From positions 1,431 through 65,430 of the forward strand of contig JAURXY010000031.1 in the NCBI GenBank assembly GCA_030654225.1: a DNA stretch of 64,000 bases, read 5' to 3'. The notes beneath the pieces are model-generated. The model was not told where the DNA came from, did no database searches, and saw only the letters and a program-made list of their open reading frames with translations. Numbering within the stretch: the first letter of the stretch is position 1; every line of letters starts with the position of its first letter. Position numbers and translations under genes: made by a program. Shown here piece by piece: positions 15,502 through 49,698 of this stretch. Source of the DNA: a bacterium. GTDB lineage: Bacteria > Patescibacteriota > Minisyncoccia > Moranbacterales > UBA2206.

Positions 15502-16419
15502 CTAATTATTTTTCCCCTCAAAAACAGCACTTATTTTCCAGACGCCCTTTTCTCTAAAGGCTGGGATGCTTTGACGACGAGCGGAGTTGAGCAGTGCGTT
15601 CACAGACTTAATATTCTTTTTTGCATAATCAGATAATTTTACAATCTCCTCTCCTTTTAGATATGTTATTCTTTTGTGCAAGGATTCTATAAGCGCAAGA
15701 GCAATAACTTTTTCCATTGTCTTTGTTTTCCCGCTTATTCTATATTCTCCGAATGACTTATAATATTGCGCCTTTTCTTTGTCTCGAATAATAACAACCG
15801 GTAAACCGAACCTCATTAGTTGATAATTCATAAGCACTCGACCAATTCTTCCATTGCCATCGCAAAAAGGATGAACAGTTTCAAAGTCCAAATGAAATTT
15901 AGCAATTTTGTCTACAAAATATTTATCTAAATTATTCGCGTAGTAATCAAGTATCATTGTGATCATTAACTCAACTTTTTCTGGAGACGGCGCAATATGA
16001 GTTCCAACCCTCACATATTCACCTGGCTTCCTAAATTGTCCAGCAATTTTATCATTAATTCCACCAATAAGCATTTGGTGAAGAAGTAAAATTGTTTCTC
16101 TGTCAATTTCCTTTTCCTTGGATTTATCTCGGATATAGTTAATAACCCTGGATAAATTTTTTGCTTCATACACCTCTCGCACGCTCACATCTCGCGAAAC
16201 TTCCATTTCCAAAAGAATCTTTTCCGTTTCTTTGAGAGTTAGCGTTGAATTTTCAATCGCATTGGAATTATAAACAGACTCTGGAATTTCAGCTTCATCA
16301 ATCAGCGCCAAGAGCGACTCTTTGCCTTTTTTCAATTTATCATATTCTTGTTTGAGATCTTGGATACGTTTTTTGACTAGGTTTGCAATTGGCATATTTT
16401 TCACGTTAATATTATGCAC
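15502..16419 (-). CDS. Fic/DOC family protein (class II Fic AMPylase with N-terminal inhibitory motif)
   Basis: 305 aa. Canonical Fic motif HPFCDGNGRIGR. N-terminal SNAIEN matches the (S/T)xxxE(G/N) inhibitory helix. Confidence 0.85.
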   Translation of the reverse strand: MHNINVKNMPIANLVKKRIQDLKQEYDKLKKGKESLLALIDEAEIPESVYNSNAIENSTLTLKETEKILLEMEVSRDVSVREVYEAKNLSRVINYIRDKSKEKEIDRETILLLHQMLIGGINDKIAGQFRKPGEYVRVGTHIAPSPEKVELMITMILDYYANNLDKYFVDKIAKFHLDFETVHPFCDGNGRIGRVLMNYQLMRFGLPVVIIRDKEKAQYYKSFGEYRISGKTKTMEKVIALALIESLHKRITYLKGEEIVKLSDYAKKNIKSVNALLNSARRQSIPAFREKGVWKISAVFEGKNN

Positions 16420-17480: not shown

Positions 17481-17794
17481 GCTGAAAAACTCTCCCTGGA
17501 ATTGACTCATTTCCTGTCAAAGCCAACACAAAAAACACCATTTAAGGTGTTCCTGCGTATGTTCAAGCAAAGTAATAAGTTTCACAATCTTATGCGATTA
17601 GTCCAAGAGTCTATCATGTCCTGTACTAAAAGACACTGCAGATTCATATAGCTCTGCTGGGCATTGACGTTCCCCGATAAATCGGGGTCGACCGTCGGAT
17701 GAAATCCATACTGCACAACAACGGTTTTGAGGCCTATTGTCTTTAATGTGCAATACTCTGGAATTTCATCGGTTCTCCCTAGAAAGGAGGTGAT
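17481..17794. repeat. displaced copy of 16S rRNA 3' trailer (includes last ~13 nt of 16S and a processing-stem strand tcacaatcttatgcgattagtcc); candidate att site of the 30 kb island
   Basis: Blockwise ~70% identity to 47661-47979. The terminal 22 nt ttctccctagaaaggaggtgat are identical. Confidence 0.6.
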
Positions 17795-17914
17795 TCGTGG
17801 GAAGAATCGCAAAAAACAAGGATTATTTTCAAAATACTATCAATTTCATCACTGGAATATCATATCTCTTGGCATCTTTTTTGTCAAGAATTTAGTTTAT
17901 TTAGTTTATTTTTG

Positions 17915-18736
17915 TTAATTAAATATTTCATCACGATAAGCGATAACTCCATCTACCACTTCTTCAAATTTTGGCAAATCCCCCACCAAGGTTACCAGAT
18001 GAGCCTCCCAATATTTCTTAAATTGCTCTAGATGTTTTTTGTCCATCTGATAAATCAAATCTTTATCAATTTTTCTAAAATCACATTTTTCAAAAAAAGA
18101 ATCTTTAATCAATTTCAAGTCTAGCTTCTTGTTTTCGGAAATATACCAAATATCAAATAAATCTCGACTTCTAGGATAAGTTCGAATAGAGGCTGATGCC
18201 ATCAGTTTATCTATAATTATCTCCTCCATTTTGGTTGTTACTATTCTTGGTTTTCCAAAGATGTCAATATCAGAATATGGATGGAAAATTTCTTGCTCTG
18301 CTGGAGTAGTAAAAAGTTTGTCCACAAAAGAAAGGTCTATTTTTATTTTCGATTTTCCCTTAACACTTTGAAAATGCATCGTTCCCTTGAAAGCTTCCTC
18401 ACCATAATCCTCTCGCTCTTGTTTTACACTAAAAAATTCCAGTGTTGTGCCAAATTGCTGGTTAGCAATATTGCAAATCTGTTCTAAGACTGTCTTAACT
18501 TCTTCTTCAGTTTTTAAATTTCGATTGAATAGAGTGAAGTCCAAATCTTCAGAAAAGCGATATTCGGTGAAGTAGCATTTTTTGAGAGCAGTGCCACCAC
18601 GAAAAACCCAGTCTTTAGTTGCTGGATTTTCTGCGATAATTTTCAGAGCCACACCCAAGTGATAATCTTTTTCGATTATGCTGGGGTCGACTTTTGCTTG
18701 GGCTGCTTTTTGATAGACTTCATCTCGTGTAATCAT
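17915..18736 (-). CDS. AbiEii/DUF1814-family nucleotidyltransferase toxin (type IV TA / abortive infection)
   Basis: 273 aa. GGTALKKCYF...YRFSEDLDF motif. Sits directly downstream of an AbiEi-like gene. Confidence 0.7.
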   Translation of the reverse strand: MITRDEVYQKAAQAKVDPSIIEKDYHLGVALKIIAENPATKDWVFRGGTALKKCYFTEYRFSEDLDFTLFNRNLKTEEEVKTVLEQICNIANQQFGTTLEFFSVKQEREDYGEEAFKGTMHFQSVKGKSKIKIDLSFVDKLFTTPAEQEIFHPYSDIDIFGKPRIVTTKMEEIIIDKLMASASIRTYPRSRDLFDIWYISENKKLDLKLIKDSFFEKCDFRKIDKDLIYQMDKKHLEQFKKYWEAHLVTLVGDLPKFEEVVDGVIAYRDEIFN

Positions 18737-18743: not shown

Positions 18744-19541
18744 TTATGTAGTTTTCCAATTTAATAAATCTTCTTTGACAATATTTACATTCAACTTCCA
18801 CTTAGAATTCCATTGTGAATTTTCAGCTGGCAATAACGGTTCCAAAACCACTGGATTTGGGTTAGTTATAAAACTCTTTATTTTATCCAGTTCTTCCTTA
18901 TTGGAAACTTCTAAAATTTCTAGTAAATATCCTAGCCTCTTAAGAACTGGTTGTCCCATCTTATTGGCATAGTCAATTAGATTTTTTGATTGGTTAGTTT
19001 GATAAAAATTATACAGCCCCTTTATGACCTCGCTGATTCCACCACAATAAGCAGGAAAAGCCAAACAGTCTACTAGCGTCTTTTCTTGGTCAGTAATATT
19101 AACTTGGTGATTGGCTACCCAGATTTGCGTAATGCCAAAAAATCTCTTCGAATTAAGTCTAATAAACTGATATTCGCTTCCTAATATATTCTTGGAATAG
19201 TTTACAATACCCTTATTAGTTTGAATATATGTTCGCTTAGGTAATTGCTCCGTTAATCCCCAATGATTCAAGGCTGACCAAAAAGATACCGCATAGGGTT
19301 GAACCAAGTTAGCTCCAATCCAAAAATTACTGGCTGTCCAGTTTTCCTGATATCCCTCGGGCACATACAAATACACTTCTCTTTTTAATCGAATAAGCCG
19401 ATTTTCCTTTGATAATTCCGATAAGACCTTCCGAACAGTTCCCTGACTAAGGTCATTAACAATACTCCGAATCTCTGTAAAAGTGTATATCTCCTTACCA
19501 CCTCTATTTAGTTGGGCTAAAATATTATCCTTTGAACTCAT
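18744..19541 (-). CDS. AbiEi-like antitoxin / transcriptional regulator
   Basis: 265 aa. N-terminal winged HTH (FTEIRSIVNDLSQGTVRKVLSELSKENRLIRL). Canonical AbiEi-AbiEii gene order. Confidence 0.6.
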   Translation of the reverse strand: MSSKDNILAQLNRGGKEIYTFTEIRSIVNDLSQGTVRKVLSELSKENRLIRLKREVYLYVPEGYQENWTASNFWIGANLVQPYAVSFWSALNHWGLTEQLPKRTYIQTNKGIVNYSKNILGSEYQFIRLNSKRFFGITQIWVANHQVNITDQEKTLVDCLAFPAYCGGISEVIKGLYNFYQTNQSKNLIDYANKMGQPVLKRLGYLLEILEVSNKEELDKIKSFITNPNPVVLEPLLPAENSQWNSKWKLNVNIVKEDLLNWKTT

Positions 19542-19750
19542 ATGATTAACATTTAGACTTGATTAGTGGCTATTTATATGCATTATCTTAGCATATATGT
19601 TAAAAATTTGCAAATTTCATATAACAACGTCTTGTCCATTTCATTCGGTATATGTAATAGAATATTGATATTTTATAACATATACCTGTTCCTATATAAT
19701 AAAATTAGACTTTTTTATATAACCAACCATAGGATGAGATTATTGTAAAA

Positions 19751-20662
19751 TTATACCCAATTATCCATATTCATCCCCTTTTCGTGAGCCTGCTTAGCTT
19801 CGTCATCACTCAAAATTCCCAGATAGTGCTTGCTGGTGGTTTGGATGTCTGAATGTCCGAGCAAAACTTGAATATGTCCGAGACTGACACCTTTTTTCAT
19901 AAGAAGCGTAGCGAAGCTGTGACGAATTGTGTGAGCAGTGAAGCTTGCGGATAATCCTAGTTTCCTGCGGTAATTTCTGAAATTCCGCTGGGCATCATTT
20001 CTATCCCAGCGATTTGCCTTACTTTCAGCCACAAAAATAAATTTTCCTTCATAGCCTCTTTTTTCAATATATTCCCTGATACATTTCAATGACCAGTCTG
20101 TAAAATATAATTTTCTTTGTTTGTTGCCTTTACCAACAATAGTCACTTCTTTTTTCTCCCAATCCATATCTTGAATTTTCAAATTCAATGCTTCACTGAT
20201 GCGACAACCTGTTGAAATAAGGACTGAAACAAACGCTCTGAATCTAAAATCTCTGATACTGCGTTTTCCGATTGAATCAAAAAACTTTTTCAGTTCTTCT
20301 TCTGTGAGATAGTCAACTCTTCTTTTTGGAATCTTTGGTCTTTTTATTTTTTCAAAATCCATTACCTTAATATGCAATTCATCCTGACAAAATCTCAACG
20401 CTTCTCTGATAACAGATAAGTTATGGGCTCTTGTAGTTGGTTTCAATTCTCGTCTGTTATATTCTTTCTTGAGTTTTGCAATGTGTTCTTCACTCATTTT
20501 TCCAACTTCAAAATCCCCAAGTATTTCAACTGTCCATCTTATAACTTTACTGTATTCATAAATTGAAGCAGGACTCATCTCCTTTTCCAATTCACAATAA
20601 TCCAGATATTTTTTACCAGCTTCGCTAAATTTTATTGAATTTTGTTTTTTAAAAAATAACAT
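19751..20662 (-). CDS. tyrosine recombinase / phage integrase
   Basis: 303 aa. C-terminal HTIRHSF...LLGHSDIQTTSKHY (R-H-R-Y catalytic residues). Confidence 0.85.
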   Translation of the reverse strand: MLFFKKQNSIKFSEAGKKYLDYCELEKEMSPASIYEYSKVIRWTVEILGDFEVGKMSEEHIAKLKKEYNRRELKPTTRAHNLSVIREALRFCQDELHIKVMDFEKIKRPKIPKRRVDYLTEEELKKFFDSIGKRSIRDFRFRAFVSVLISTGCRISEALNLKIQDMDWEKKEVTIVGKGNKQRKLYFTDWSLKCIREYIEKRGYEGKFIFVAESKANRWDRNDAQRNFRNYRRKLGLSASFTAHTIRHSFATLLMKKGVSLGHIQVLLGHSDIQTTSKHYLGILSDDEAKQAHEKGMNMDNWV

Positions 20663-20730
20663 TGGATTTTATGGTTTGTCCAATGTTAGCTTGCGTGTGG
20701 ATTAAGTCAAATCGAGTTATGCACCGTCTA

Positions 20731-22614
20731 TTATGCCATTTCCATATACGCCTTTATTTTAGTAATTGCATCTACTACTTCGCTATTTAATCCATCAATC
20801 GATTTAAGCTCATCAATTATTTTTATCAATCGTTGAAATTTAGTATCCCCGCTTAAACCAGAAACTCCAAGAAGTTTTTCAAGGCTCGTTGAGAACATAA
20901 CATATTTTTCATCTTGGGAGCCTAGTTTTAATGCGTTATTTTCTTTCTCATTATTATTAGAATCAGTATGACTAGCTCCAGCGTCTCCATCGAATATGGT
21001 GAAGTAATTTAAATCAAATGCCTTGCAAATCATTTGATATACCTTTAATTTACTCTTTCCCCAAACTGGGATAATTGATACTGAGTATTTATCAACATTA
21101 CAGCCGATTAGATTTAAAAGTTTTGGCAATGCATATTTATCCCCTGGACCCTCAACTATTATTATTTTTTCTGTAAAAAATATCTCTAGATTTCCTCTTA
21201 AAATCAAACTAACATCTAAGCATCTTTTGGCATAACTATCTAGGTATTCTTCCATCCTATACTCATTGCCGTTGGTTGCGACTTCTTTTTGTAATAGCTT
21301 GTCTTTTTCTGGATATATCTTTCTTTTCTGAACTAGCTTTATTTGCTTCCAGTTTCTCAGTGATATAAAATTTTCTGATTGGGTTGAATAAATTATATGC
21401 AAATTTTTCTGCTCCGAAAATATATTATACATTTTCAATTGCCAGTCAACGTGAAGATGTAATTCTGGTTCGTCAATTAGTAGAATTATCGGCACTTTTT
21501 CTAAACTCGCTACATAATTAAACAGTGCATAAGATACAATGATATTAAATCCAGAACCAAGGTTTTCTGGCAATAATAATTTGTTCTGTTCTTTTTTTGC
21601 AATAAAAGCTGACTTATAGGGTTGCTCCAAATCAATGAAATCAATTTGCGCTTCAATATCAACAGAACATACGTCCTTAATGATTCGATTGACTGTTTTA
21701 ATTAAAGTACTTTTTTCATCAACTATTCCCCTCAAGTTCTGCGCTAATGTTTCATATTTTTCAGCTATATCACTAAAATTCGTCTTCTTTTCTGATTGTC
21801 TTTTCCATTTCCAATGCAAATCACCTAAAATTTTACTTACAAATGAATAGTCTCCAGAGACATCCTTGTCTCTATTCTTTGTTAAATAATAAACTTTTGG
21901 GAAATTTTTTAATCTACTGAGATTGAATGACAGAGAAAACGCAGGAAAATCTGCTGAACGTTCTCCTCCATTTTTTAATTTAAAATTTACACTATAAAAT
22001 CCGCCTCCAGTATTATCAAAGTCAACTTTTGTAGCATTGCCCAAACAACATTCTTTTACTAATTTTTTTAACTCTTCGATATCATCAACACCATCTATTT
22101 TTTCAATTGAAGAAACTTCATATGCCTTCGATTTTAGACTAGCATATATTTCTTGTCCAATTATTCCAGTTAGCGGAATAACTTCTTTATTTATTGTATA
22201 AGCATCATCGAGTATTTTTTCTTGCTTTTCTCTTCTTTTGATGGTTAATCTCACTTTATTGCACGGGACAAGGATTGTATGAGAAATTTGTTTTTCTGAT
22301 ATCACATCAATACTCGTAAAAAATGGATTGACCGTCTCCCCTTCAATAACAATTTTATCTTTAATTCCAGACGCATCACAATGAAAATCTCTTTCACATA
22401 TTTTTGTGGGAAGATAATCCTGTCCAAATAAAAAGTTTATCGCATCTAAAATAGAAGTCTTGCCACTTCCATTTCTGCCAATTATAGATGCTACGGATTC
22501 GCTATCGCAGAAATCAACAACAATTCCCTCATTATCATAACATCTGAAGTTTTTAATTGTTATGCTTTTTAATAACATACACAAAATATCTAATCTCTTA
22601 GTTATATTTCCCAA
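20731..22614 (-). CDS. OLD-family ATP-dependent nuclease (ABC-type ATPase + C-terminal TOPRIM)
   Basis: 627 aa. N-terminal IIGRNGSGKTSILDAINFLFG. C-terminal IIVEGPGDKYALPKL and FDGDAG (Toprim E and DxD). Confidence 0.7.
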   Translation of the reverse strand: MGNITKRLDILCMLLKSITIKNFRCYDNEGIVVDFCDSESVASIIGRNGSGKTSILDAINFLFGQDYLPTKICERDFHCDASGIKDKIVIEGETVNPFFTSIDVISEKQISHTILVPCNKVRLTIKRREKQEKILDDAYTINKEVIPLTGIIGQEIYASLKSKAYEVSSIEKIDGVDDIEELKKLVKECCLGNATKVDFDNTGGGFYSVNFKLKNGGERSADFPAFSLSFNLSRLKNFPKVYYLTKNRDKDVSGDYSFVSKILGDLHWKWKRQSEKKTNFSDIAEKYETLAQNLRGIVDEKSTLIKTVNRIIKDVCSVDIEAQIDFIDLEQPYKSAFIAKKEQNKLLLPENLGSGFNIIVSYALFNYVASLEKVPIILLIDEPELHLHVDWQLKMYNIFSEQKNLHIIYSTQSENFISLRNWKQIKLVQKRKIYPEKDKLLQKEVATNGNEYRMEEYLDSYAKRCLDVSLILRGNLEIFFTEKIIIVEGPGDKYALPKLLNLIGCNVDKYSVSIIPVWGKSKLKVYQMICKAFDLNYFTIFDGDAGASHTDSNNNEKENNALKLGSQDEKYVMFSTSLEKLLGVSGLSGDTKFQRLIKIIDELKSIDGLNSEVVDAITKIKAYMEMA

Positions 22615-22915
22615 TCTGAGCCGATATACAGCCTACTCTTTCTTTGTTTTTTCCTTTTTCTGATTTTTATCTTTACGCAACGATACTTTGTAAGCACCTT
22701 CGTTTACCTCATTTACATTCGGGCTTATTTTCAGAAATGCTGGTTGTTTTTCTGTTCCCCAAAATTCTTTGTTCGGTTTTGTTACTTTTGTCATATATTT
22801 TTTTGTTAATAATTTTCCTATTATTACTGTTGGTAACTTTAATAGGAAAAATTGAAAGAATAATTTTTTTTATAGAGTTTATTAAGCTGTAACTTATAAG
22901 TTTCATCTTTGAGTT

Positions 22916-23326
22916 CTAATAATTAGCAGATTCAATGATTCCAATATTATCTAGAAACTTCTGTAACACATTTTCAGCTAAGACTTTTTCAAGAAACATT
23001 TTTTCTCCTTGCGGGATAATAATATATACCCAAGAATTAACGCCATTTTTATTCAAGCTTGAAAATAATTTATATTGAGTTATTGAATGTTCAGACTCAA
23101 TATCCCCATTGCCTATCTTTGCTTCTCCCCTAATTACTCTTTTATTAAGTTCGTCATAAGCCTCAATATCAGGAATTTTGTTTTGGCAATCTCCTATATT
23201 ATTGTTATTTTCTACAGCACTAGGACATTTCACTGTTACTCCATCAACTGCATAAACATTGAATCCATTTTTCCCAAAAATACTTGCCAATTCTCTTACG
23301 AGAGAATTATGTTTTTCGCTTTCCAT
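22916..23326 (-). CDS. small PD-(D/E)xK-type nuclease-like protein
   Basis: 136 aa. IPDIEAYDE...VIRGEAK fits a PD-(x)n-ExK pattern. Confidence 0.4.
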   Translation of the reverse strand: MESEKHNSLVRELASIFGKNGFNVYAVDGVTVKCPSAVENNNNIGDCQNKIPDIEAYDELNKRVIRGEAKIGNGDIESEHSITQYKLFSSLNKNGVNSWVYIIIPQGEKMFLEKVLAENVLQKFLDNIGIIESANY

Positions 23327-23575
23327 TTTTTGTGATATAATTAGGTTAGTTAGAGAGGGTGACCGAGACCACCTTCCAAAGCAATCTCGGTCGCTCTTTT
23401 TATTTACATCGACTTGTGCGAATGCGTTCAGTCTCGGTTGTGCGAGGACTTTTTTTTACTTGTCCTTTTTTGACAAACCTACCACTGACAGAACTACGGT
23501 GAACCGTTTTTATCTTTGCCATTTGGTTTTTCTTTAATGATTATGTATATCAAAGCCAGCCCAGCTGGAAGATAT

Positions 23576-24211
23576 TTAAAAAACAGGGATATATTGAATT
23601 TCATCACTGTTCGGAACTGGAATTGAGCAAACTACTTTCCCGGCTATGTGGACATTCTCATTAGTTACAATAGGTTTATGAGATTCGTCATTTGTCACGG
23701 GCATTAGCATTAGAGCGGATTTACCCTTATAAAATCTTTTAATACAAGCAGTTCCATCAAGCACCGCAACAACATCATCGCCATTTTCGTAATAATCTTT
23801 TTGAAAAACTAAAACAAAGGATGAATCGCTTATCCCAGCCTGAAGCATTGACGTTCCCGAAGCACGGAGAAAATAATATCTATCTCGCTCATCCTTAATA
23901 AGACTCCTACTAACACTTATATAATCATCAATATTGTCCTGAGCATAAAATTCTGGGGTTCCGCACGAGGCTATCCCACGTAATGGTATTAGAACTTCAT
24001 TCTCTTTCTCGTAATGAATCTCTTGTTCTTTTTCTGCGATTGGTTCCTGCATACTTTTTACAATATCCTGTGTCCTGAAGCGTCTATCGCCTCTTTTTCC
24101 AAATCTAATTGCCTGAACTTTGCCATCATCAGCCCACTTACGAAGTGTGTTAGGATGGCAATTGAGCAATTTGCAAGCTTTTTTAAGCGTTAAAAGTTCA
24201 TTATTATTCAT
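23576..24211 (-). CDS. LexA/CI-like repressor (N-terminal HTH + C-terminal S24 peptidase)
   Basis: 211 aa. HTH LLNCHPNTLRKWADDGKV. S24 motif ASGTSM and a Lys downstream. Confidence 0.7.
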   Translation of the reverse strand: MNNNELLTLKKACKLLNCHPNTLRKWADDGKVQAIRFGKRGDRRFRTQDIVKSMQEPIAEKEQEIHYEKENEVLIPLRGIASCGTPEFYAQDNIDDYISVSRSLIKDERDRYYFLRASGTSMLQAGISDSSFVLVFQKDYYENGDDVVAVLDGTACIKRFYKGKSALMLMPVTNDESHKPIVTNENVHIAGKVVCSIPVPNSDEIQYIPVF

Positions 24212-24324
24212 TTTTATTGTTAGGTTATAGTATTAACTTACCTAATTCTAACATAACTACACTGATTGTCAACAAAAAAACAGGGTATTCCCCGTTTTAA
24301 GCCTCCTTAAATGACTACTCTAAA

Positions 24325-24837
24325 TTATTTACGTTTTTCCACACTATTCACTGCCTTAACATAATTGCAATAATCGCAATCATCTGATGCTTTTGGTATT
24401 TCAGAACTCATTAGACACTTTTTTGCATCTGCCAATGTGTTTTCTACCCAACTATCATCCAACTTATATGGAATAACTTTTATATCAAACTCCAGCTTGC
24501 CATCAAAGGCTTCCTTGTCAGCATCTCCATTGCAATAGACGAAATATCCAGTCTTGGAAACTTTGAACCCATTTTTTCTGAAAAGCCACTAATAAATCTC
24601 CATCTGTCTTTTATATCCAATCTGCCAATCAGCATCTAAGCTAACTTCTCCATTTTTTGAAGTCGCTTTATAATCCACAATCATTAGTTCTCCACTAGAA
24701 CTAACCCAAACATCATCCACTCTTTCACCAAGACTCAATATCACTAAGTTTGTTTGGTTTATATTTATCCCACTCCTCCTGTTTAACATACAACATCTTA
24801 TATTCAATCTTTTTCTGCCTATCATTTGCATCTTCAC
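24325..24837 (-). pseudogene. Cas4/RecB-like PD-(D/E)xK nuclease remnant with in-frame TAG (24589-24591) and missing N-terminus
   Basis: One frame reads ...GERVDDVW..ELMIVDYKATS...RQMEIY*WLF...CDYCNYVKAV. Motifs II, III and QhxxY are present plus a C-terminal Cys cluster. The 5' end overlaps the res stop. Confidence 0.45.
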
Positions 24838-27397
24838 ACCACTGCTTCAAGCGTGCGATTTTCAATGGGTCATCTAAATCTTCCCTGCCCTTGGTTTCAA
24901 TAATATAGACGGTTTTGTCATCTTTTTTTACAAAGAAGTCGGGATAGTAATATGAGATTGAACCATCAGCGTTCTTATAATCAATTTTGAAGTGAATTTC
25001 AAAGTAATTTTTCGCAAATGAAATCACATCGTCACTTTTCTCAAGAAAATCAGAAAACTCCAATTCGAAGTTGCTGTCGCCCACGATTTTATTGAAAACA
25101 CTTTTCTTGGGAATAAGATACGACCTATCCGTAACCACAAATGGACGACTACTACTTATCTTTATGTAATTTTTTATTTCAGCATCTCCCTTGTCTTCAA
25201 TAGTGAGAGCATTTATTTCTTTTTTGAAAGTTTCCCTGATAGTTTTGATGGCTTCAAGTTCAGATAAGTTTCTCAACACATTCAGGTCTTCAAGATTAAC
25301 TTGTTTCTCAAAAAGATAATCTCGCACAAATTCCTTAACTTTTTCAAATAAAATATCATAGCAACCAAACATTCTCATATCCCTCATTATTGTTTGAGCA
25401 AAAAATCCGACAGCACTTTGATAGTTCGGCTCAATTTCAGAATCTAAAACTGTTTTGTGATGAATTTTACCATCCACAACTTCTTGAAAAACAATCTCCT
25501 TCTTTTCCTGTTCAGAAAATTCCTTGATTTTCAATTTAGTATGGGGAAAGTTGGCAACATTCAATGTATGCAAATTTTTGTATTCTCTCTGAATTCTTGG
25601 GGTAAGAATTGGAAGCTCGATGTCTAATTTCGCAATATCCTTTTTAACATTTTCATTATCAATCTCAATAACAATAGGAGTGATTGGCTTAGTTCCAACA
25701 TCCATCGCTTTCTTATCCAAAATAACACCTTCGCTATTTATAGACTTAACAAAATCCATAAATGCAGGGGTTCCGATAATACTCACATATTCTTCAATAT
25801 CATTTCTTCCAAAATACATTCTACGCAAACCTCTTCCTAATGTTTGCTCTGGCAAAATGTTAGCAGTAGATGAATATGCCCTCAATCCAACAATTGTAGT
25901 CACATTCTTCACATCCCAACCCTCTTTAAGCATAAGGACAGAGATTATAGCTTTAAATGGACTATCGTTGCTATCAATATCGTTTGCTTGTTCACGTAAT
26001 TTTATAAGTTCCTTTTCATCTTTTCCTGAAACTTTTTCCGATATATCTCCGCTTTTATTTGTATGAATTGTTAAAACTGCGCCTTTTAAATCTTGAAATG
26101 TTTTTTCCAAATATTCTGCCACTTCATCACAATTCTTCGTATCGTCAGTCATTATAAAAAGGATGGATTTTTTTCCTGTTGGTTTCAACGCTTCATAAGT
26201 CTTCCTCCATTCAGCGACTCCCAAATTCAGATAGTCTTTATATCTTTCTGAAAACAAGGAGCTTTGATTTTCTTGTAGTTTCGCTCTGCTTGCTTCATCT
26301 GGAATGACAGGATTTTTTACAACTCGTTGATGGATAGCTTCAACCAATGGATAGTCAGAAACAGTCTGCACGAAAATTCCTCCATTATTATGCTTTGGTG
26401 TGGCAGTAACATCAATTTGAAGCGAAAGCTTTCCGCCTTTTAATTTGAGCTTATTATGAATATCCTGAATTGATTTAAACCAAGCCAATTTTTCATCGTG
26501 AATGTGATGAGCTTCATCGTTTATAACAACCAATTCATCAACATCACGAATAATTTCTCCCAAGTCAACTTTTGAATCGTTCGTTTTTCCCGCTGGCTTT
26601 GTGCCAAGAAAATATTCTGAAGTGTCTTCATCTTCAAAACTAGCATCTACAACATCACTTTCAAAAACTCTATGTATATTAGTAAGAAAAATATTTCCCG
26701 CATCTGAAATGTGTCCTACGGCATCCTGAAGATGAAGTGTCAATTGAAAATCATCTTCCCAGTTTTGTCCATCATAACCATTGTCGGGAAGCACTGGGTC
26801 GTCGTGAAATATCTTTAGACCTTCAAAATCACTTTTTATTCTTTCTAAAACTATGATGTTTGGAGTAATAAGTAAAAAGTTTTTTGCCAATTGAGAATCA
26901 GTTTCATATAACTTGTGAAAATATGACCACGCTAAAATTAGACTCATTACTTTTGTCTTTCCACTACCAGTAGCCATTTTAATTACAAAACGAAGCCAGT
27001 CTTCATAAAACATATTAGGACTGACTCTGCCTAATGCATCAAACTTGAGCATATCATACTTACTTTCAACTTTTTCAACATCATAAAGCCAGACAACAGT
27101 TTCTACCGCTTCTCTTTGAGCAAAATAATATCTGAATGAAACTGGAATTCCATCTTTACCAAAAATCTGGTGTTCTTCTTTGAACCACCAATTTAAAAGA
27201 CTTTTTGATGTCTGACTAGCACCTTCGTAATTCTTGCCCCTCCAATCCTTCACTTCTTTGCGAAGTTCCGACACGAAAGGAGGCAATAGTTTTTCATATC
27301 CATTGTCCTTGCGTAAATCCTCATCAGCAGGAAACCACCGAACACTTGGGTCTAATATTTCATATGGATTTTGTGGGAAGTCTTTATGTAGTGCCAT
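24725..27397 (-). CDS. res: Type III restriction enzyme Res subunit (SF2 helicase + endonuclease)
   Basis: 890 aa. Walker A ATGSGKTKV and DEAH box INDEAHH. Sits directly downstream of mod. Confidence 0.85.
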   Translation of the reverse strand: MALHKDFPQNPYEILDPSVRWFPADEDLRKDNGYEKLLPPFVSELRKEVKDWRGKNYEGASQTSKSLLNWWFKEEHQIFGKDGIPVSFRYYFAQREAVETVVWLYDVEKVESKYDMLKFDALGRVSPNMFYEDWLRFVIKMATGSGKTKVMSLILAWSYFHKLYETDSQLAKNFLLITPNIIVLERIKSDFEGLKIFHDDPVLPDNGYDGQNWEDDFQLTLHLQDAVGHISDAGNIFLTNIHRVFESDVVDASFEDEDTSEYFLGTKPAGKTNDSKVDLGEIIRDVDELVVINDEAHHIHDEKLAWFKSIQDIHNKLKLKGGKLSLQIDVTATPKHNNGGIFVQTVSDYPLVEAIHQRVVKNPVIPDEASRAKLQENQSSLFSERYKDYLNLGVAEWRKTYEALKPTGKKSILFIMTDDTKNCDEVAEYLEKTFQDLKGAVLTIHTNKSGDISEKVSGKDEKELIKLREQANDIDSNDSPFKAIISVLMLKEGWDVKNVTTIVGLRAYSSTANILPEQTLGRGLRRMYFGRNDIEEYVSIIGTPAFMDFVKSINSEGVILDKKAMDVGTKPITPIVIEIDNENVKKDIAKLDIELPILTPRIQREYKNLHTLNVANFPHTKLKIKEFSEQEKKEIVFQEVVDGKIHHKTVLDSEIEPNYQSAVGFFAQTIMRDMRMFGCYDILFEKVKEFVRDYLFEKQVNLEDLNVLRNLSELEAIKTIRETFKKEINALTIEDKGDAEIKNYIKISSSRPFVVTDRSYLIPKKSVFNKIVGDSNFELEFSDFLEKSDDVISFAKNYFEIHFKIDYKNADGSISYYYPDFFVKKDDKTVYIIETKGREDLDDPLKIARLKQWCEDANDRQKKIEYKMLYVKQEEWDKYKPNKLSDIESW

Positions 27398-27477: not shown

Positions 27478-29715
27478 CTATACATTTATCTCAATTACTT
27501 TTGTTGTATCGTTTCCAAAAATATCAACCACTTTTACAGCGATTTTATGTTTTCCCTTTGGCATATCTTTTGATGCAGAAACGAATTCCAACTTCCTGTC
27601 TTTTTTGGTTCGAAATGATTGCCATTCATTTTCAAAGACATAATGCCCTGTCCATTCTTCTTTTTCTTCTCCAGTTTCAGAATTAGTAAATCTGACGACT
27701 TCCTTTTTGCTCTCAAAGTCAAAATCGACCGCCCAATAATCAATCCAATCAGTCCAATTTTTTGTAAGAACTTCACGCTCCACAATATCCGTTTTCTTAT
27801 CTTTGGAAATTTTGATAACTTGCCCATTCTCAATCACGACCCTGCTACCACCAGATTTCAATTTTTCTTCAACTTCTCCAGTGTCATCTTGATTATAAAA
27901 TACGCTAAAATCACTGAGTTCAATTGCTACACTACCCTTTTTCACAATTGGTTTTATTTCAATATAGGCAACATCATAAAACTTAACTTGTCCTTTTTCT
28001 ACCGCCCTTTTATCAAAAACCTCTCTTGGAATTACTTTAAATTGTAAGTCTATGCCTTTACTTTGCATCTCTGAAAAATCCAGCCCCATTTCCCAATCAA
28101 ATCCCAAAACATCAGCCTTAGTGATTCCTTTTTCTTTGCATTCTTTTATTATTTCTTCAATAAACACATCCGAGACTGGGGCATTTACAGGTCCGACTGC
28201 TATAAGTCTATCTCGTTTTTTCCCAACAAACGTTACGAATGAATCAACTGGCTCAGCTTTATATGCTGAAAGAATAAGTTTTATAAATTCCCTTTCTTTA
28301 TTTTCCAAAACTCTTTGTCTTTCTTCTTCTCGTAAATCCGAATGCACCTCAATATAATGCTCCCTTTCGTATCTGCCAACATTCAAAATTTCAAAAGCAC
28401 GAAAATCTTTACTAGCCTTCTTGAGTTCCCGCTGAACACTAATCATTCTTTTTCTAGCAGTGTGGATTGAAAATCTTCCTAGGTCTGAACCAATCCATTT
28501 TCTGCCAAGTTTTTCCGCTACCGCTAAAGTCGTGCCAGAGCCACAAAAAAAGTCAGCCACCAAATCACCTTCGTTTGAAGATGCTTTTATTATTCTTTCA
28601 AGCAAGGATTCTGGTTTTTGGGTTGGATAGTCGTATCTTTCAGATGCATTTGCAGACAATGGAGCAACCCCTTCATCTGACCATAAATCACCAACGTAGT
28701 TTCCTTCTTTTTCGTCCAAATATCTCTTTACCCTTGGCACTCCATTCTTAGTAAAAATAATTCTATTTTCTCTTATTCCTTGGTTAATTTTTTCCTGAGA
28801 CCATATCCAATGCTTTCCAGCGGGTGGAGTTAAAACTTTATCGCCAAATATTTTTGCAGACCCTGAGCCTTTTTGAGTAAAATCAAACGAACCATATCTT
28901 CTTCCCGTAATTTCTTCAACATTAGAGTAATTTTTATCATCTTTACTGCTTTCAATAAACTGAGCATTGAAAAGTGAATTTTCAGATTTTGTATAATGAA
29001 AAATTGAATCCTTCACATTGCTAAAATATTTACTTTGAGCTTTTGCTGAAGTCAATTTATTCCATATTATTTCACTTCTGTAATTTCCTTTTCCAAAAAT
29101 TTCATCCAAAACTAATCTTATACTACTATTTACTCTCCAATCACAATGAATATAGATACTTCCATTATCGGCAAGCAATTCGTGCATTATTCTCAATCGC
29201 TCATAAATCATAGCAACAAAGCTATCCATTCCTCTTCCCCAAGTATCACGAAAAGCAATTTCTTCAATTACTGAAGGCTTTTTTGTAAACTCCTCTTCGC
29301 CTATTTGAACATTCATTGAAAAATCAGCTCCAACATCAAATGGAGGGTCAATATATATCAATTTTAGACCACCTTGTTTTTCTATTTCTTTTCTAAGCGG
29401 TCCATTTTTTAATGAAGAAAGAATAAGTTTGTTGTCTCCCCAAATAAGCTTGTTTGTCCACCCCTGAATTTGTCGCCCTGAAGTATCAAACAAAGATTGT
29501 TGCAATTCAATTTTCCCCTCGCTTCTTGGTTCGTCAATTTGCTCAATTGTCTGAAACGGAAGAACTAGATTGCAAACTTCATTGGTTTTCCCATTCCATA
29601 AAAGCTCAACTTCCCTAGCATCATCAAAAAGCAAAAAGCGATACTTCTCAGGAAGTGACTTATTTTTTTCAAGATATTTAATAATATCCCGTTTTTCGTT
29701 ATCGCTTAGATTCAT
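27478..29715 (-). CDS. mod: Type III R-M Mod subunit (beta-class N6-adenine DNA methyltransferase)
   Basis: 745 aa. Motif IV IDPPFD precedes motif I FFCGSGTT (beta order). Carries a ~300-aa C-terminal extension. Confidence 0.85.
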   Translation of the reverse strand: MNLSDNEKRDIIKYLEKNKSLPEKYRFLLFDDAREVELLWNGKTNEVCNLVLPFQTIEQIDEPRSEGKIELQQSLFDTSGRQIQGWTNKLIWGDNKLILSSLKNGPLRKEIEKQGGLKLIYIDPPFDVGADFSMNVQIGEEEFTKKPSVIEEIAFRDTWGRGMDSFVAMIYERLRIMHELLADNGSIYIHCDWRVNSSIRLVLDEIFGKGNYRSEIIWNKLTSAKAQSKYFSNVKDSIFHYTKSENSLFNAQFIESSKDDKNYSNVEEITGRRYGSFDFTQKGSGSAKIFGDKVLTPPAGKHWIWSQEKINQGIRENRIIFTKNGVPRVKRYLDEKEGNYVGDLWSDEGVAPLSANASERYDYPTQKPESLLERIIKASSNEGDLVADFFCGSGTTLAVAEKLGRKWIGSDLGRFSIHTARKRMISVQRELKKASKDFRAFEILNVGRYEREHYIEVHSDLREEERQRVLENKEREFIKLILSAYKAEPVDSFVTFVGKKRDRLIAVGPVNAPVSDVFIEEIIKECKEKGITKADVLGFDWEMGLDFSEMQSKGIDLQFKVIPREVFDKRAVEKGQVKFYDVAYIEIKPIVKKGSVAIELSDFSVFYNQDDTGEVEEKLKSGGSRVVIENGQVIKISKDKKTDIVEREVLTKNWTDWIDYWAVDFDFESKKEVVRFTNSETGEEKEEWTGHYVFENEWQSFRTKKDRKLEFVSASKDMPKGKHKIAVKVVDIFGNDTTKVIEINV

Positions 29716-29773: not shown

Positions 29774-31114
29774 TTATACTTTTTTGGGCAAATTTTCCTT
29801 ACTAATATTTTTCTCCACAAATTCTTTCTGTTTCTTTCTTTTTTCAAAAAATCCCATAGCATCGATTTCACCGGAATTTATATCCGAAAGCCTTTCTAAT
29901 TCCTTGTCCAGTTCGCACATTTCTGGATTAACTTCCAAGGCAGTTTCATTGATACCCAGCAGTTTTATACCGTCCAATCTTCTAACTCTCGACAAGGCTA
30001 CATAGCCCATTCCATATTCAAATGATTTGCTCAAATCCATTTCCACCGCGTCCAGTGTCATACCCTGACTTTTGTGAACTGTGATTGCCCACGCTAATCT
30101 AAGTGGCACTTGCGTCACTGAAGCTAATATCACTTCATCTTCTTCAATAGACCATTTTTCAGGAGTGGCAACAATTATTTTACCAGAAAGTGTTTGCACG
30201 ATTGGCAATCCGCTTTCTTCAAAATCAGTGACAACTCCAAGTGTGCCATTGACAAAACCTCTTTCGAAATTATTTTTCACAAACATTACCACCGCACCTT
30301 TTTTGAGAATAAGTTTTTCAGGAGCCAGACATCCCCGCTTAATCGTAGTCACTAAATTTTCTATGCCGGTAGCAGTCATCAAAAATTCTTTCGGCTCTTC
30401 TTTGATTTTTTGCAATTCAAAATCGTTGATAGCATCCACATTGGCATTGTGAGTATATAGTCGTGTAGGAGCAATATTGTTTTTTATAGTTTTATTTTCT
30501 CTGGAAAGAATCATTCCCATCGTTTCGCTGTCGCAAGTCCTGTTTCTAATATCACCCAGGATTTTTAACATCTGCCTATCTTCTTGCCGGTGCTGTTCTT
30601 CCAAATAGCAAATCCTCAAATTCATTTCATCCCACGCTCTGGATTCAATTACAAATTTTGCCCTGCTTCCATATCTTGCTACGGGAGGCAATTGAAAAAA
30701 ATCCCCGCAAAGAATAACTTGCAATCCTCCAAATGGAAAAAATGGCTCTTTGAATCTTTTGCAAATGCTATTTACAATGTCCAACTGATGAGCGTGAAGC
30801 ATAGACACTTCATCTATTATCAGCACTTTGGTTTTTTTAATTCGACTTTTATAGAAAGGTCTTTTTTTAAGTTTAGAAAAATCCGCTTCAGTAAATATAT
30901 CTTTAATGCCCATACCAGACCAACTATGAATAGTTTGTCCATTCATATGTGTCGAAGCAATCCCAGTTGAAGCTGTTATCGCTACTCCTATTTTTTTACT
31001 TTTAAGATATTGAATATATTGATTTAGCAAATATGTTTTTCCGCTTCCTGCAGGACCCGTCAAAAACACATTGTGTCCCAATTTCAAAATATCCAGAGCC
31101 GTTGCTTGTTTCAT
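29774..31114 (-). CDS. Pif1/RecD-like SF1B DNA helicase
   Basis: 446 aa. LTGPAGSGKTYLL Walker A, IIDEVSM Walker B, and a C-terminal RecD-like domain. Confidence 0.75.
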   Translation of the reverse strand: MKQATALDILKLGHNVFLTGPAGSGKTYLLNQYIQYLKSKKIGVAITASTGIASTHMNGQTIHSWSGMGIKDIFTEADFSKLKKRPFYKSRIKKTKVLIIDEVSMLHAHQLDIVNSICKRFKEPFFPFGGLQVILCGDFFQLPPVARYGSRAKFVIESRAWDEMNLRICYLEEQHRQEDRQMLKILGDIRNRTCDSETMGMILSRENKTIKNNIAPTRLYTHNANVDAINDFELQKIKEEPKEFLMTATGIENLVTTIKRGCLAPEKLILKKGAVVMFVKNNFERGFVNGTLGVVTDFEESGLPIVQTLSGKIIVATPEKWSIEEDEVILASVTQVPLRLAWAITVHKSQGMTLDAVEMDLSKSFEYGMGYVALSRVRRLDGIKLLGINETALEVNPEMCELDKELERLSDINSGEIDAMGFFEKRKKQKEFVEKNISKENLPKKV

Positions 31115-32945: not shown

Positions 32946-33830
32946 TCAAATTTGTGCCAGCCTCACCTCCTTTCTGAGCCGTGATTTGGCTATGTGCAAA
33001 TATCTTTCAGTAGTCGAGATATTTTTGTGCCCTGCCAATATCTGAATTGTTTTCAGGTTCACGCCTTTTTCCAAAAGTCTGGAACAGAAGCTGTGGCGGA
33101 GGGAATGCACTGAGATGTTCGACTTGGTTATTCCAGCCAATTTCAAATATTTCTGAACCAGCATTCCCACTCTTCTTTGCGTGATTCTTTTTTTGAAACT
33201 ACTCATAAACAATGGTTCTGATATTTTTTTGCCTTTAGACAACTGCTTGATATTTTTTGCCAGCTCTGTGTTTATCGGAATACTTTGTTTTTGTCCGCCC
33301 TTCCTTTTGACAATTATCGTTTTTGCTTCTGTATCAATATCTTCAATGCTTAAATTTGTCAGCTCTGAAATTCTAATGCCCGTTTCAATAAAAATTTTTA
33401 TCATTAGCTCGTTTCTTTTTTTATGTTTGCTTTTATCATCCCTAACAACTTTGATTAGTTTTTTCAATTCTGACTCAGTCAAATAGCTCGGCTCTTTTTC
33501 TTTGACTTTCGGCATCGCGATATTTTTAGCTGGACTATTCTTCATCAAACTCTCATTTTCTAAAAATCCAAAGAAATTTTTAAGCGAAGTAAGTTTTCTT
33601 CTTCTGGTTATCGGCTGATTATTTTTCTCCGATAAAAAAACAAGAAAGCTCCGAATGGAGCCTCTTGCTAATTTATTAACCGAGAAATTCTTGATGAAAT
33701 GACCGAATTCAAAAATATCTCGCTGATAAACCTCAATGGTCTTTTCGCTCAGTCCTTTTTCTATACGCAGATATTCTAAATATTTCTTTGTATATTTTTG
33801 CATTGATGTGTGCCTCGTTACTTGTGACAC
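32946..33830 (-). CDS. tyrosine recombinase / integrase
   Basis: 294 aa (GTG start; ATG at 33803 possible). SLRHSFCSRLLEKGVNLKTIQILAGHKNISTTERY. Confidence 0.8.
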   Translation of the reverse strand: MSQVTRHTSMQKYTKKYLEYLRIEKGLSEKTIEVYQRDIFEFGHFIKNFSVNKLARGSIRSFLVFLSEKNNQPITRRRKLTSLKNFFGFLENESLMKNSPAKNIAMPKVKEKEPSYLTESELKKLIKVVRDDKSKHKKRNELMIKIFIETGIRISELTNLSIEDIDTEAKTIIVKRKGGQKQSIPINTELAKNIKQLSKGKKISEPLFMSSFKKRITQRRVGMLVQKYLKLAGITKSNISVHSLRHSFCSRLLEKGVNLKTIQILAGHKNISTTERYLHIAKSRLRKEVRLAQI

Positions 33831-42366: not shown

Positions 42367-42558
42367 TTATCGCAGATAATTTATGTCGAACTTTTTGTTG
42401 CCTTGAATGTCATTGAAATACAATAACTTTTCAATCGCAAACTCACACTCCTCCCTGCTTATTCCCAGTCTTCTAGCAATAACCACCTTAGATTTCAGAG
42501 GATTATTAGAAATAAAATCAAACACCTTGTAAATACTAGCCTTTTGTTTCTTGTTCAT
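42367..42558 (-). CDS. small HTH protein (possible excisionase/regulator)
   Basis: 63 aa. Directly downstream of and overlapping an integrase gene. Confidence 0.3.
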   Translation of the reverse strand: MNKKQKASIYKVFDFISNNPLKSKVVIARRLGISREECEFAIEKLLYFNDIQGNKKFDINYLR

Positions 42559-43502
42559 CTTGAGTTCACCTCCTCTCCAGATTTCATCTCTTTCCCAAAA
42601 TTCATTATTTCACTATGGTGCTTTTTAACTTCTTCAAAATCCAAATTTCCTATGTAAAATTTAGTCGTTACCTGACTAGAGCTGTGATTCAAAAATTTCT
42701 GAATTACGCCCAGCGGAACACCCTCCTTAAACATCAAAGTTGCAACGGAGCGTCTGGCAATTAAGTGTGGCGTAACATTTATTTTAAATCCTAATTTTTT
42801 GCCTAAATTACGAAGTCCTCGTTGCAAATCGTTAACTTGAAGTCTATTTATATTATTCATATTGATTGTTGCAAACAGTGCATCACACGCATCGTTGCCT
42901 CTCATTTCTAAATATTCTTGAATTGCCATTTGCGAAGCAGAGTTAAAAATTATTTGATGCGGACGATTTCCCTTTGTCCTAATGCTCAACACAGAACTTG
43001 TTTCAAAATCTATTTGGCTTTTGTTGAGTCCTAGAAGTTCCGAAACACGACAGCCCGTGCTGATTGCAGTCTGGATTATGGCTCTCATCCTAAGTCCAGT
43101 TATAGTCTTATTACTTGGAGCTGAAGCCAGTGTTATTAACTGTTCCTTAGTAAGATAACTGACTTCTTTCTGAGGAACTGTAAATTTTGTAACTTTGGAT
43201 TGGTCAAAAACTTTTATCCCATCTCTTTCGCATTGAGCTAAAATATGTCTCAAAATTATTAAAAAATGGTTTTTTCGGCTGGCACTAAGATTTCGTTGAT
43301 TAAGTTTTTGCTTTAGTTCAATTACAGCCATTTCATTGATTCTTTTGATATTTATGTCACCCAAAATCCTTATGAGCATTCCAGCCACTTCTTTGTATTT
43401 CTGAATAGTCCTCGGAGCTAAAATTGCATCCGCTTCGGCTTTAGCAAAAAATCTCTTGAGGCATTCAGACAGGTTGAGTTTTTTAGAAAATAGAAAATTC
43501 AT
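42555..43502 (-). CDS. tyrosine recombinase / integrase
   Basis: 315 aa. HLIARRSVATLMFKEGVPLGVIQKFLNHSSSQVTTKFY. Confidence 0.8.
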   Translation of the reverse strand: MNFLFSKKLNLSECLKRFFAKAEADAILAPRTIQKYKEVAGMLIRILGDINIKRINEMAVIELKQKLNQRNLSASRKNHFLIILRHILAQCERDGIKVFDQSKVTKFTVPQKEVSYLTKEQLITLASAPSNKTITGLRMRAIIQTAISTGCRVSELLGLNKSQIDFETSSVLSIRTKGNRPHQIIFNSASQMAIQEYLEMRGNDACDALFATINMNNINRLQVNDLQRGLRNLGKKLGFKINVTPHLIARRSVATLMFKEGVPLGVIQKFLNHSSSQVTTKFYIGNLDFEEVKKHHSEIMNFGKEMKSGEEVNSR

Positions 43503-45487: not shown

Positions 45488-45672
45488 AATAATTTAGCTT
45501 CCAAATATTTTCTGCGGTATTTATCATAATTGAGCATAATGTCAAAGCAGTCTTTTTTTGTGAGCGTCTGTTCGTATTTTTTTGCTAGTTTAATAACTAC
45601 ATTTATATCAAACATATTTGCCAGTCCATTTCTTCTCACTTTTTCAAAGGCTATGAATTTGGCTTTGGTCAT
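45469..45672 (-). CDS. hypothetical small protein upstream of integrase
   Basis: 67 aa, Lys-rich. Confidence 0.3.
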   Translation of the reverse strand: MTKAKFIAFEKVRRNGLANMFDINVVIKLAKKYEQTLTKKDCFDIMLNYDKYRRKYLEAKLLWKIKL

Positions 45673-45697
45673 AATTTTGAAGCTAATAATTAGGTCA

Positions 45698-45739
45698 GTG
45701 ACACATTAGCTCTTGGGACAAGGAAGTCAAGGAGAGTTA
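45698..45739. repeat. direct repeat B (gtgacacattagctc...gaagtcaagg)
   Basis: Matches 33825-33868. Confidence 0.5.
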
Positions 45740-45809
45740 TCCACTCCAGCGGAAAACGGAGGTAATAGTAAAAAACCACCAGCTTGTGGCGATAAAACGG
45801 AGCGAACCT

Positions 45810-49036: not shown

Positions 49037-49190
49037 TGGTCGCTTCTCGCTTCGCTCAAAAGCGCCCCGCAGACTATCACAGACTTGACGCAGAATTTCG
49101 CAGACAAAAACTTTTCAGTTTCGTCCGCGTCTTTCCGCGTTTCGTCCGCGTGTTTCCGCGGGTCGTTTCGAACAGAGTGAGAAACGACCA
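49037..49190 (-). repeat. ~154-nt insertion element in 16S V3 region (between E. coli ~440 and ~480), copy 1
   Basis: ~97% identical to 49527-49678. Internal tandem gtttcgtccgcgtgtttccgc repeats and terminal hairpins. Confidence 0.7.
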
Positions 49191-49678: not shown

Positions 49679-49698
49679 CTCGACTTGCATGCCTTATC

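Follow-up and report, generated by a model that had tools for sequence, protein, structure and literature searches.

The 64-kb window analysed here (64,000 nucleotides of contig JAURXY010000031.1, assembly GCA_030654225.1) carries three neighbouring genes that encode an S24-type repressor (23576..24211), a 136-residue protein with a PD-(D/E)xK signature that we refer to as p136 (22916..23326), and an OLD-family ABC-ATPase/Toprim nuclease (20731..22578). An earlier note, made from the sequence of the window, pointed out the three genes, which do lie on the minus strand at the stated coordinates, and regarded them as a candidate defence module. We favour a different reading, at a probability of about 0.55, in which the region is a chromosomal defence island of mosaic make-up, carried by a member of Candidatus Moraniibacteriota, of the Candidate Phyla Radiation (CPR), and not a three-gene system, with OLD being a stand-alone gene that is swapped in and out as cargo. 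Proteins with 99-100% identity to p136 and OLD occur in metagenome-assembled genomes (MAGs) labelled either Candidatus Moraniibacteriota or 'bacterium', and all of the genes in the region are on the minus strand. The island would be built on a scaffold that runs from the helix-turn-helix (HTH)-S24 repressor through a small basic open reading frame (ORF), a hairpin and p136 to a Xer-like tyrosine recombinase, and from there to a structured non-coding region. Exchangeable cargo would occupy two slots along it, OLD in slot 1 and the AbiEi/AbiEii pair in slot 2, with a Type III restriction-modification (R-M) system positioned upstream. The proposal of a dedicated module did not hold up, in that OLD lies beside p136 in the window only, among the 37 p136 loci collected, and near-identical islands contain other cargo. 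By comparison of loci, the repressor and p136 appear as a separate, conserved module that is distinct from OLD.

Exchange of cargo between conserved blocks

A contig from a related MAG (L011) shares three blocks with the window, corresponding to positions 24720-22727 (96%), 20724-19749 (91%), and 17869-17607 (82%), and has different genes between them: a Zn-ribbon protein and a Schlafen/AlbA_2 protein are encoded in place of OLD, and a SoFic-like Fic protein and a peptidase S51 in place of AbiE. The same breakpoints as in L011 are present in a second locus (L001, 83%), which encodes proteins of 163 aa and 585 aa where the window has OLD; the values of 96% and 83% for these two loci are nucleotide identities over the repressor-p136 block. 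In a third locus (L039) a 360-aa unknown protein is encoded in place of AbiE.

The left breakpoint of slot 1 is in the tail of the repressor-p136 block (22727..22915, minus strand, defined by homology to L001 and L011) and is located inside a gene. The first 38 codons following p136 match the gene for the 163-aa protein of L001 (33 of 38 identical) and the sequences then diverge, such that this fragment holds the first 38-50 or so codons of a gene that L001 retains in full (163 aa) and that is cut in both the window and L011. On its arrival, OLD evidently took the place of part of this older gene. At the right, the breakpoint coincides with the recombinase promoter region (20663-20724), and slot 1 spans about 20725-22726. 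On the upstream side, homology starts at 24720, within a Cas4-like PD-(D/E)xK gene of which the window retains a 3' remnant (24325..24720, minus strand), as judged by blastn against L011 and L001 and by the translations. This gene is whole in L011 (253 aa) and in L001 (209 aa, with the Pfam label PDDEXK_1), and in the window it is cut precisely at the end of the Type III Res gene, with blastn homology beginning at 24720.

The Xer-like recombinase (19751..20662; Phage_integrase, 2.2e-38) is conserved in L011, L001, and L039, and forms the anchor between the two cargo slots. It scores below the XerC, XerD, and IntI cut-offs, with 97 and 68 bits against integron-integrase models whose cut-offs are 265 and 435. 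A search of the cargo borders for att-like or attC-like repeats gave only short AT-rich repeats at chance level, and in the junction alignments the conserved blocks are the recombinase promoter and the gene fragment rather than repeated sites. An integron-like model was considered and rejected, as the integrase scores are low, there are no att-like repeats at the borders, and one breakpoint is inside a gene. Because such repeats are lacking and the recombinase falls far below the integron-integrase cut-offs, exchange by recombination between the conserved flanks is more likely than integron-type cassette capture. Four tyrosine recombinase genes are present in the 64 kb (19751-20662, 32946-33830, 42555-43502, and 44600-45487, all on the minus strand), and the DNA at 44600-45776 is 72% identical to the recombinase that follows p136 in another locus, L017.

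The OLD protein and the contexts of its relatives

The OLD protein has the layout expected of its family, with an N-terminal ABC-type ATPase containing Walker A and B motifs and, at the C-terminus, a Toprim domain containing the Glu and DxD motifs. It matches AAA_15 (1.8e-20) and OLD-like_TOPRIM (4.6e-16) in Pfam, as well as SMC_N and AAA_23. With PADLOC, which was used at the level of hidden Markov models for single proteins, the top matches are GajA models (2.4e-31), and Old is matched at 9.6e-29. The Walker A motif is GRNGSGKT, and residues G34, K40, and T41 within it, D369 and E370 of Walker B, and the Toprim residues E476 and D530xD532 (numbered on a 615-aa form) are invariant in 21 homologues. 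The family and motifs given in the earlier note thus stand, although its length of 627 aa, that of the listed ORF (20731-22614), is probably too long. Because the family profiles and the homologues begin at residue 13 of the listed ORF, and the DNA of three relatives becomes homologous precisely from 22579-22580 on, the true start is probably the internal ATG at 22578, to give a protein of 615 aa. This shorter form is 100% identical to a database protein.

OLD proteins are grouped in a published scheme according to their genetic context and partner genes (PMC10568477, PMC12392090), and judged by its gene neighbourhood the window protein is a Class 1-type OLD. No helicase, reverse transcriptase (RT), or split ATPase/Toprim partner is next door, as for P2 Old, TsOLD (PDB 6P74), and Vibrio cholerae OLD, and the neighbours are instead p136 and the tyrosine recombinase. 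Among solved structures, the best match by sequence is to TsOLD of Thermus scotoductus (6p74, 4.4e-25), with which the Walker A and B motifs, the Toprim Glu, and the DxD motif all align, and no GajA chain is present among the solved-structure sequence matches at E ≤ 0.001. The window OLD nonetheless differs from the characterised Class 1 proteins in having low identity to them, in being neither isolated nor prophage-borne but part of a chromosomal CPR defence island, and in belonging to a clade whose members are mostly attached at the 3' ends of R-M operons of Type I or Type III. Class 1 OLD genes have been described as not proximal to other defence genes (PMC10568477), a trait that is descriptive rather than structural, and it does not apply here, as OLD lies between Type III R-M and AbiE, and its relatives are attached to R-M operons.

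Gabija and split PARIS were both set aside in the earlier note, and we agree. GajA, a Class 2 OLD, has the same ATPase-Toprim layout as the window protein, but in Gabija (GajA/GajB) a UvrD/PcrA/Rep-like gajB is found beside gajA, whereas the window OLD has the recombinase downstream and p136 upstream; the sole superfamily 1 (SF1) helicase nearby is PIF1-like and is about 7 kb from OLD, beyond the Type III R-M genes. PARIS (Class 4) has separate AriA (ATPase) and AriB (Toprim) genes, whereas the window OLD is a single fused ORF. For the retron-associated Class 3, no RT domain was found in the neighbouring ORFs and no retron RNA at the Rfam gathering score. Scans of IMG/VR gave only distant relatives of OLD (23-27%) and no relatives of p136, and a prophage origin is unsupported for this reason.

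A clade of at least 185 members related to the window OLD was recovered at E ≤ 1e-10, with named sources that are mostly Patescibacteria together with some other phyla, and seven independent genomic contexts, a small sample, were obtained by exact-protein look-ups. Neither an S24 repressor nor p136 is present in any of the seven. The three-gene arrangement was found at no other locus, and OLD occurs commonly without these neighbours, an outcome that the earlier note had said would count against its proposal. In five of the seven contexts OLD starts 2-35 nt after the final gene of an R-M operon, either of Type I (L038, L041, L044, and L047) or of Type III (L042), and the OLD homologues at these loci have 50-72% identity. 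A 74% identical OLD in L039/L040 is preceded by two unrelated genes and followed by the same Xer-like recombinase as in the window, and homology between L039 and the window starts exactly at the OLD ATG. In L049, OLD is in an island that adjoins smpB.

By analogy with the characterised Class 1 proteins, OLD most likely acts alone. An ATP-binding ABC-ATPase dimer would license a two-metal Toprim nuclease, and nucleic acid would be cut in response to infection-associated signals. The location of the clade at the ends of R-M operons suggests a second-line role linked to R-M, as in the known theme of ABC-ATPase nucleases that provide a back-up defence from within R-M loci or from their ends (bioRxiv 10.1101/2024.01.29.577857), examples being PrrC in EcoprrI, PARIS, and the HEC-04 ATPase-Toprim fusion. 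The window conforms in having its Type III R-M system on the same strand, 2.1 kb upstream of OLD, but differs in that the repressor-p136 block sets OLD apart from the R-M genes. The OLD proteins of this clade are probably second-line partners of R-M systems, with the guard or back-up role judged from position only.

The repressor-p136 block and its possible control

No Pfam, PADLOC, or NCBIfam family matches p136, and a search of PDB sequences with the p136 family profile gave nothing meaningful. There are 25 close homologues, and in an exhaustive profile search the family is rare, with 88 cluster representatives at E ≤ 1e-3 among 1.84 billion proteins. Its members are stand-alone proteins of 120-150 aa with a patchy distribution among Moraniibacteriota, Parcubacteria, Saccharibacteria, and Chloroflexota. 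The 63 distant relatives also match no Pfam, NCBIfam, or PADLOC family, apart from a single marginal match to Hjc (0.008), and on these searches p136 appears to represent an undescribed family, outside the described sequence families. The PD...ExK signature recognised in the earlier note is well conserved; P52-D53 and E68-A69-K70, which include the signature residues D53, E68, and K70, are invariant in 23 homologues and nearly so in the distant members. An AlphaFold model (pLDDT 95, pTM 0.89), a structure prediction that the note had proposed as a check, gave the alpha-beta-beta-beta-alpha-beta order seen in restriction-endonuclease-like folds (H4-19, E23-27, E54-58, E63-69, H79-89, and E99-104), and together the model and the motif supply the core fold and the D...(D/E)xK on strands 2 and 3 that characterise the PD-(D/E)xK superfamily.

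Foldseek matches to the p136 model are individually weak, with TM values of 0.4-0.6 and best E values of 0.015 (PDB) and 0.0013 (BFVD), and are dominated by PD-(D/E)xK proteins. Those in the PDB include AF1548, CdiA-CT toxins, R2 endonuclease domains, MspJI, Cdn1/Card1, Bax1, MGME1, and SfsA, and those in BFVD include MmcB-like repair proteins, RecB-family nucleases, VRR-NUC proteins, and resolvases. In its size of about 136 aa, its core, and its invariant D...ExK, p136 resembles minimal PD-(D/E)xK nucleases such as archaeal Hjc, AF1548-like and MmcB-like proteins, and CdiA-CT toxins, although none of the 63 relatives could be placed by sequence in a Pfam, NCBIfam, or PADLOC family and the structural matches are weak. 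The assignment is one of fold and motif, and nuclease activity is predicted from it.

The repressor is a 211-aa protein with an N-terminal HTH_17 domain (Pfam, 1.4e-9) and a Peptidase_S24 domain (2.5e-19), and the earlier description of it as a LexA/CI-like regulator of the self-cleaving type is well founded. Its sequence contains the S24 fold, a Ser-Lys dyad (Ser121 and Lys158), and an Ala/Cys-Gly-type site at Cys83-Gly84, which is the candidate cleavage site, and self-cleavage is predicted. The S24 domain, the dyad, and the candidate Cys-Gly site (as in UmuD) are shared with the LexA, lambda CI, and UmuD-type autoproteases, and as for LexA-type regulators there is a candidate operator overlapping the repressor's own promoter in the window. 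The HTH_17 domain is, however, of the excisionase/MerR type and lacks the winged helix of LexA, and the protein scores 72.9 bits against the LexA equivalog TIGR00498, for which the cut-off is 110.95.

Among the 37 p136 loci there are about 21 distinct contexts with enough flanking DNA to be informative, which is also a small sample. An S24 repressor is directly beside p136 in 11 of these, either upstream and co-directional or divergent, and its DNA-binding domain is either of the HTH_17 type or a canonical LexA winged helix. In three contexts the S24 protein is replaced by an XRE HTH_3 and/or an IrrE/ImmA-type Peptidase_M78 (both near p136 in L029 and L030, and M78 only in L014, from a Chloroflexota MAG), and seven have no recognisable regulator (L003, L012, L023, and L024 are among the p136 loci lacking one). 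The genes downstream of p136 are always co-directional and are mutually unrelated, encoding the 163-aa and 585-aa unknowns, Fic, GmrSD_N/NsnA-like, and Schlafen/AlbA_2 proteins, proteins of about 100 aa, and housekeeping functions, and the family is regularly found among R-M, toxin-antitoxin, and recombinase genes. As far as the sequence libraries and the literature surveyed show, the pairing of a repressor with p136 is undescribed, and it is rare. There is a parallel with CapH/CapP, an HTH protein with an IrrE/ImmA-type metallopeptidase (bioRxiv 10.1101/2022.04.27.489752; PMC13228613), in that p136 is preceded by or faces XRE HTH_3 and M78 genes in L029, L030, and L014, and in that the logic of a damage-triggered proteolytic switch upstream of a potentially toxic effector is the same. 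In contrast to CapH/CapP, the window has a one-protein S24 switch, and p136 is not among the known CapH/CapP-regulated systems in the PADLOC models.

In loci of the Parcubacteria type, a further small protein, about 100 aa in length, is encoded after p136 (L029 7678-7971, L030 2528-2821, and L032 8394-8708). The L029 copy has a marginal match to Mrr_cat (E 0.003), and the L029 and L032 copies have a PD...E-x-K-like pattern by eye, such that p136 and this protein may constitute a two-nuclease arrangement.

The genes of the three-gene region are not tightly packed, with intergenic gaps of 249 nt (repressor-p136) and 337 nt (p136-OLD), and the latter contains the 5' part of the truncated gene. 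The best sigma-70-like promoter of the region, TTGACA-16-TAGAAT with a TG, was identified by consensus scan only and lies in front of the repressor (24245..24272, minus strand), where it is preceded by a terminator-like hairpin (24277-24298). Neither a terminator-like site nor a consensus promoter was found by scanning the p136-OLD interval; such scans are weak evidence, especially in CPR bacteria. A motif scan gave a 17-nt motif, TAACTTACCTAATTCTA (24234..24250, plus strand), which overlaps the -10 element of the repressor promoter and makes up one half of the palindrome TTAGGT-N14-ACCTAA, and a second copy, TAACTAACCTAATTATA (23336..23352, minus strand), which stops 10 nt short of the p136 ATG on its upstream side. 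As these two sites themselves served to define the motif, the match is partly circular and its significance is modest, with the observed match being reached by 1 of 100 shuffles, a figure of 5 of 100 also being given for the window lineage. There are no further copies in the 64-kb window at ≤ 2 mismatches, and hence none near OLD, and the motif is absent from L017, L019, and L022. It is a candidate operator, though a weak lead.

The 249-nt gap contains a strongly basic ORF of 40 aa (23400..23522) and a conserved hairpin of the p136 leader, GACCGAGA...TCTCGGTC (23359..23394, minus strand). In an alignment of eight sequences 89% of the cells are paired, compared with 29-43% in slid controls; three of the nine pairs have compensatory changes, and pairing is maintained through both compensatory and G-U changes. 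Several related loci likewise have a small basic ORF, of differing sequence families but always with its end some 75 nt ahead of p136, and the hairpin follows it.

A plausible mechanism for the block is that the S24 protein shuts off p136 as well as its own promoter, that RecA-type or phage-derived signals trigger self-cleavage at Cys83-Gly84 through Ser121 and Lys158, and that p136 is then made as a small PD-(D/E)xK nuclease. The analysis shows which genes are present, what domains and folds they encode, how they are conserved, and where the breakpoints fall, and all biochemical activities, the regulatory wiring, and the trigger are predictions. Because the p136 family is rare, patchy, and island-borne, and is alternatively coupled to CapH/CapP-like regulators, p136 is more likely to be an inducible defence or toxic effector than a repair enzyme.

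The repair reading is nevertheless a serious rival. It supposes that the pair belongs to the SOS regulon of the host, that the repressor is an orthologue or paralogue of LexA, that p136 is a damage-induced repair or resolution nuclease of the Hjc or MmcB type with no role in phage defence, and that the adjacency of OLD is incidental. Many of the partner repressors are canonical LexA_DNA_bind plus S24 proteins, some of them are divergent from p136 as in classical lexA-SOS gene pairs, and both the repair proteins, RecB-family nucleases, and Holliday-junction resolvases among the structural neighbours and the marginal Hjc match in one family member are in keeping with it. We consider it unlikely overall, as the great rarity and patchy phylogeny of p136, its regular occurrence amid R-M, toxin-antitoxin, and recombinase genes, and the excisionase-type HTH and low LexA score of the window repressor count against it. 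A new OLD class, in which p136 is the obligate partner of OLD in a three-component system, seems to us very improbable. The three genes are adjacent and co-directional in the window, and OLD classes are indeed defined by partner genes (PMC10568477), but the combination was found at no other locus; 37 p136 loci are without OLD, the seven OLD contexts are without p136 or S24, near-identical scaffolds carry other cargo, and the genes are set apart by spacers of 249 and 337 nt, with a truncated gene between p136 and OLD.

Several observations weigh against our preferred reading or limit it. Since no promoter or terminator-like site separates p136 from OLD and the sole strong promoter match is in front of the repressor, OLD may be co-transcribed and under repressor control in the window genome. 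The co-directional and often defence-like cargo behind p136 (OLD, Fic, GmrSD_N/NsnA-like, and Schlafen-like proteins) is also what a 'regulated head plus cargo' design would give. Furthermore, the 17-nt motif is weakly significant and missing from distant loci, so that the proposed wiring of repressor to p136 depends mainly on adjacency, and with seven OLD and about 21 p136 contexts the samples are small and the support comparative. In such a design the S24 repressor with p136 would be a portable damage- or phage-responsive switch 5' of exchangeable defence cargo, and OLD would be switched on only once the repressor had cleaved itself, as transcription from the promoters of the repressor and p136 read through into it, with a coupling that is transcriptional and involves no protein complex, by analogy with CapH/CapP or BrxR upstream of diverse immune operons. 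We regard this as possible but tentative. It is consistent with the promoter and terminator scans, with OLD homologues usually being last in operons with 2-35 nt spacers and hence lacking their own promoter, and with the ties of p136 to CapH/CapP-type regulators in L029, L030, and L014, but several p136 loci continue into housekeeping genes or small unknown ORFs (L019, L005), the loci L003, L012, L023, and L024 have no recognisable regulator, and the scans carry little weight in these bacteria. A broader form of the proposal, in which p136 and an S24 (or XRE plus M78) repressor make up a new portable module, triggered by damage or phage, of CPR bacteria and their relatives, with p136 as an inducible nuclease effector and the pair also serving as a head that makes downstream defence cargo SOS-like inducible, is doubtful as a whole. 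Within our preferred reading of OLD as stand-alone swappable cargo, read-through into OLD may be either an accident of its landing site or an instance of the general head-and-cargo design, rather than a dedicated partnership. The SOS control suggested in the earlier note is accordingly possible for the window genome, through read-through from the repressor promoter, and is not a conserved property.

Neighbouring features and wider meaning

The upstream part of the island is formed by the Type III R-M genes, with the methyltransferase Mod (27478..29715; N6_N4_Mtase, 1.5e-46; PADLOC MTase_III, 6e-114) followed by the restriction enzyme Res (24725..27397; ResIII, 1.7e-17), which has a C-terminal endonuclease domain and also matches the RE_endonuc/TnsA-like N domain in Pfam and REase_III in PADLOC (8e-22). 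The PIF1-like SF1 helicase gene (29774-31114, minus strand) is directly upstream of mod on the same strand, and may be an extra component of this R-M or defence locus. In slot 2, AbiEi (18744-19541; PADLOC AbiEi, 5e-71) and AbiEii (17915-18736; PADLOC AbiEii, 4e-61) make up the antitoxin and nucleotidyltransferase pair that defines AbiE. A near-perfect palindrome of 19+19 nt (19647-19686; 89% complementary, with a 2-nt spacer) lies within the AbiE cargo between the recombinase stop codon and abiEi, and is plausibly an AbiEi operator. Just outside the island a Fic/DOC family protein is encoded (15502-16419, minus strand), and Fic genes are also found in cargo positions of L003 and L011.

The far flank of the island is a structured region without an ORF (17525..17886, minus strand), recognised by conservation and folding, which is a candidate for a new non-coding RNA as judged from its sequence. 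It is about 330 nt long, bears a promoter close to consensus (TTGACA-N17-TATGAT) as well as a terminator-like hairpin, and is strongly structured, with a minimum free energy of -94 kcal/mol (z = -4.5). It is conserved as the outer island flank in L011 (82%) and L039 (40 nt at 97.5%), and contains a stretch, CACCUCCUUUCU, that resembles the 3' end of 16S rRNA. Rfam gave a best E of 0.36 on the 17.5-17.9 kb flank, under the gathering score, and ARAGORN reported no tRNA or tmRNA there. Elsewhere in the window, a 16S rRNA match (47968-49744, minus strand) covers 1777 nt relative to a model of 1533 positions, which implies insertions; no 23S rRNA or tRNA gene adjoins it, and ARAGORN reported no tRNA anywhere in the 64 kb.

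The result for OLD is mostly one of classification, in that a little-studied phylum gains a further Class 1-type OLD, and the habit of its clade of residing at the ends of R-M operons fits the idea of a 'second-line ABC-ATPase nuclease'. A proteolytic repressor that controls a nuclease follows a familiar logic, and the OLD gene belongs to a known kind. The more useful outcome is the undescribed small PD-(D/E)xK family, which in these bacteria of reduced genome is coupled repeatedly to damage-responsive, proteolytic repressors of three different kinds. The precise breakpoints also provide a concrete case of cargo turnover at a recombinase-anchored hotspot. If p136 is indeed an inducible effector, or if its pairing with the repressor acts as a switch for cargo, a compact regulatory or effector module would be added to the defence repertoire, and it would offer a handle on how toxic immunity genes are controlled in CPR bacteria.

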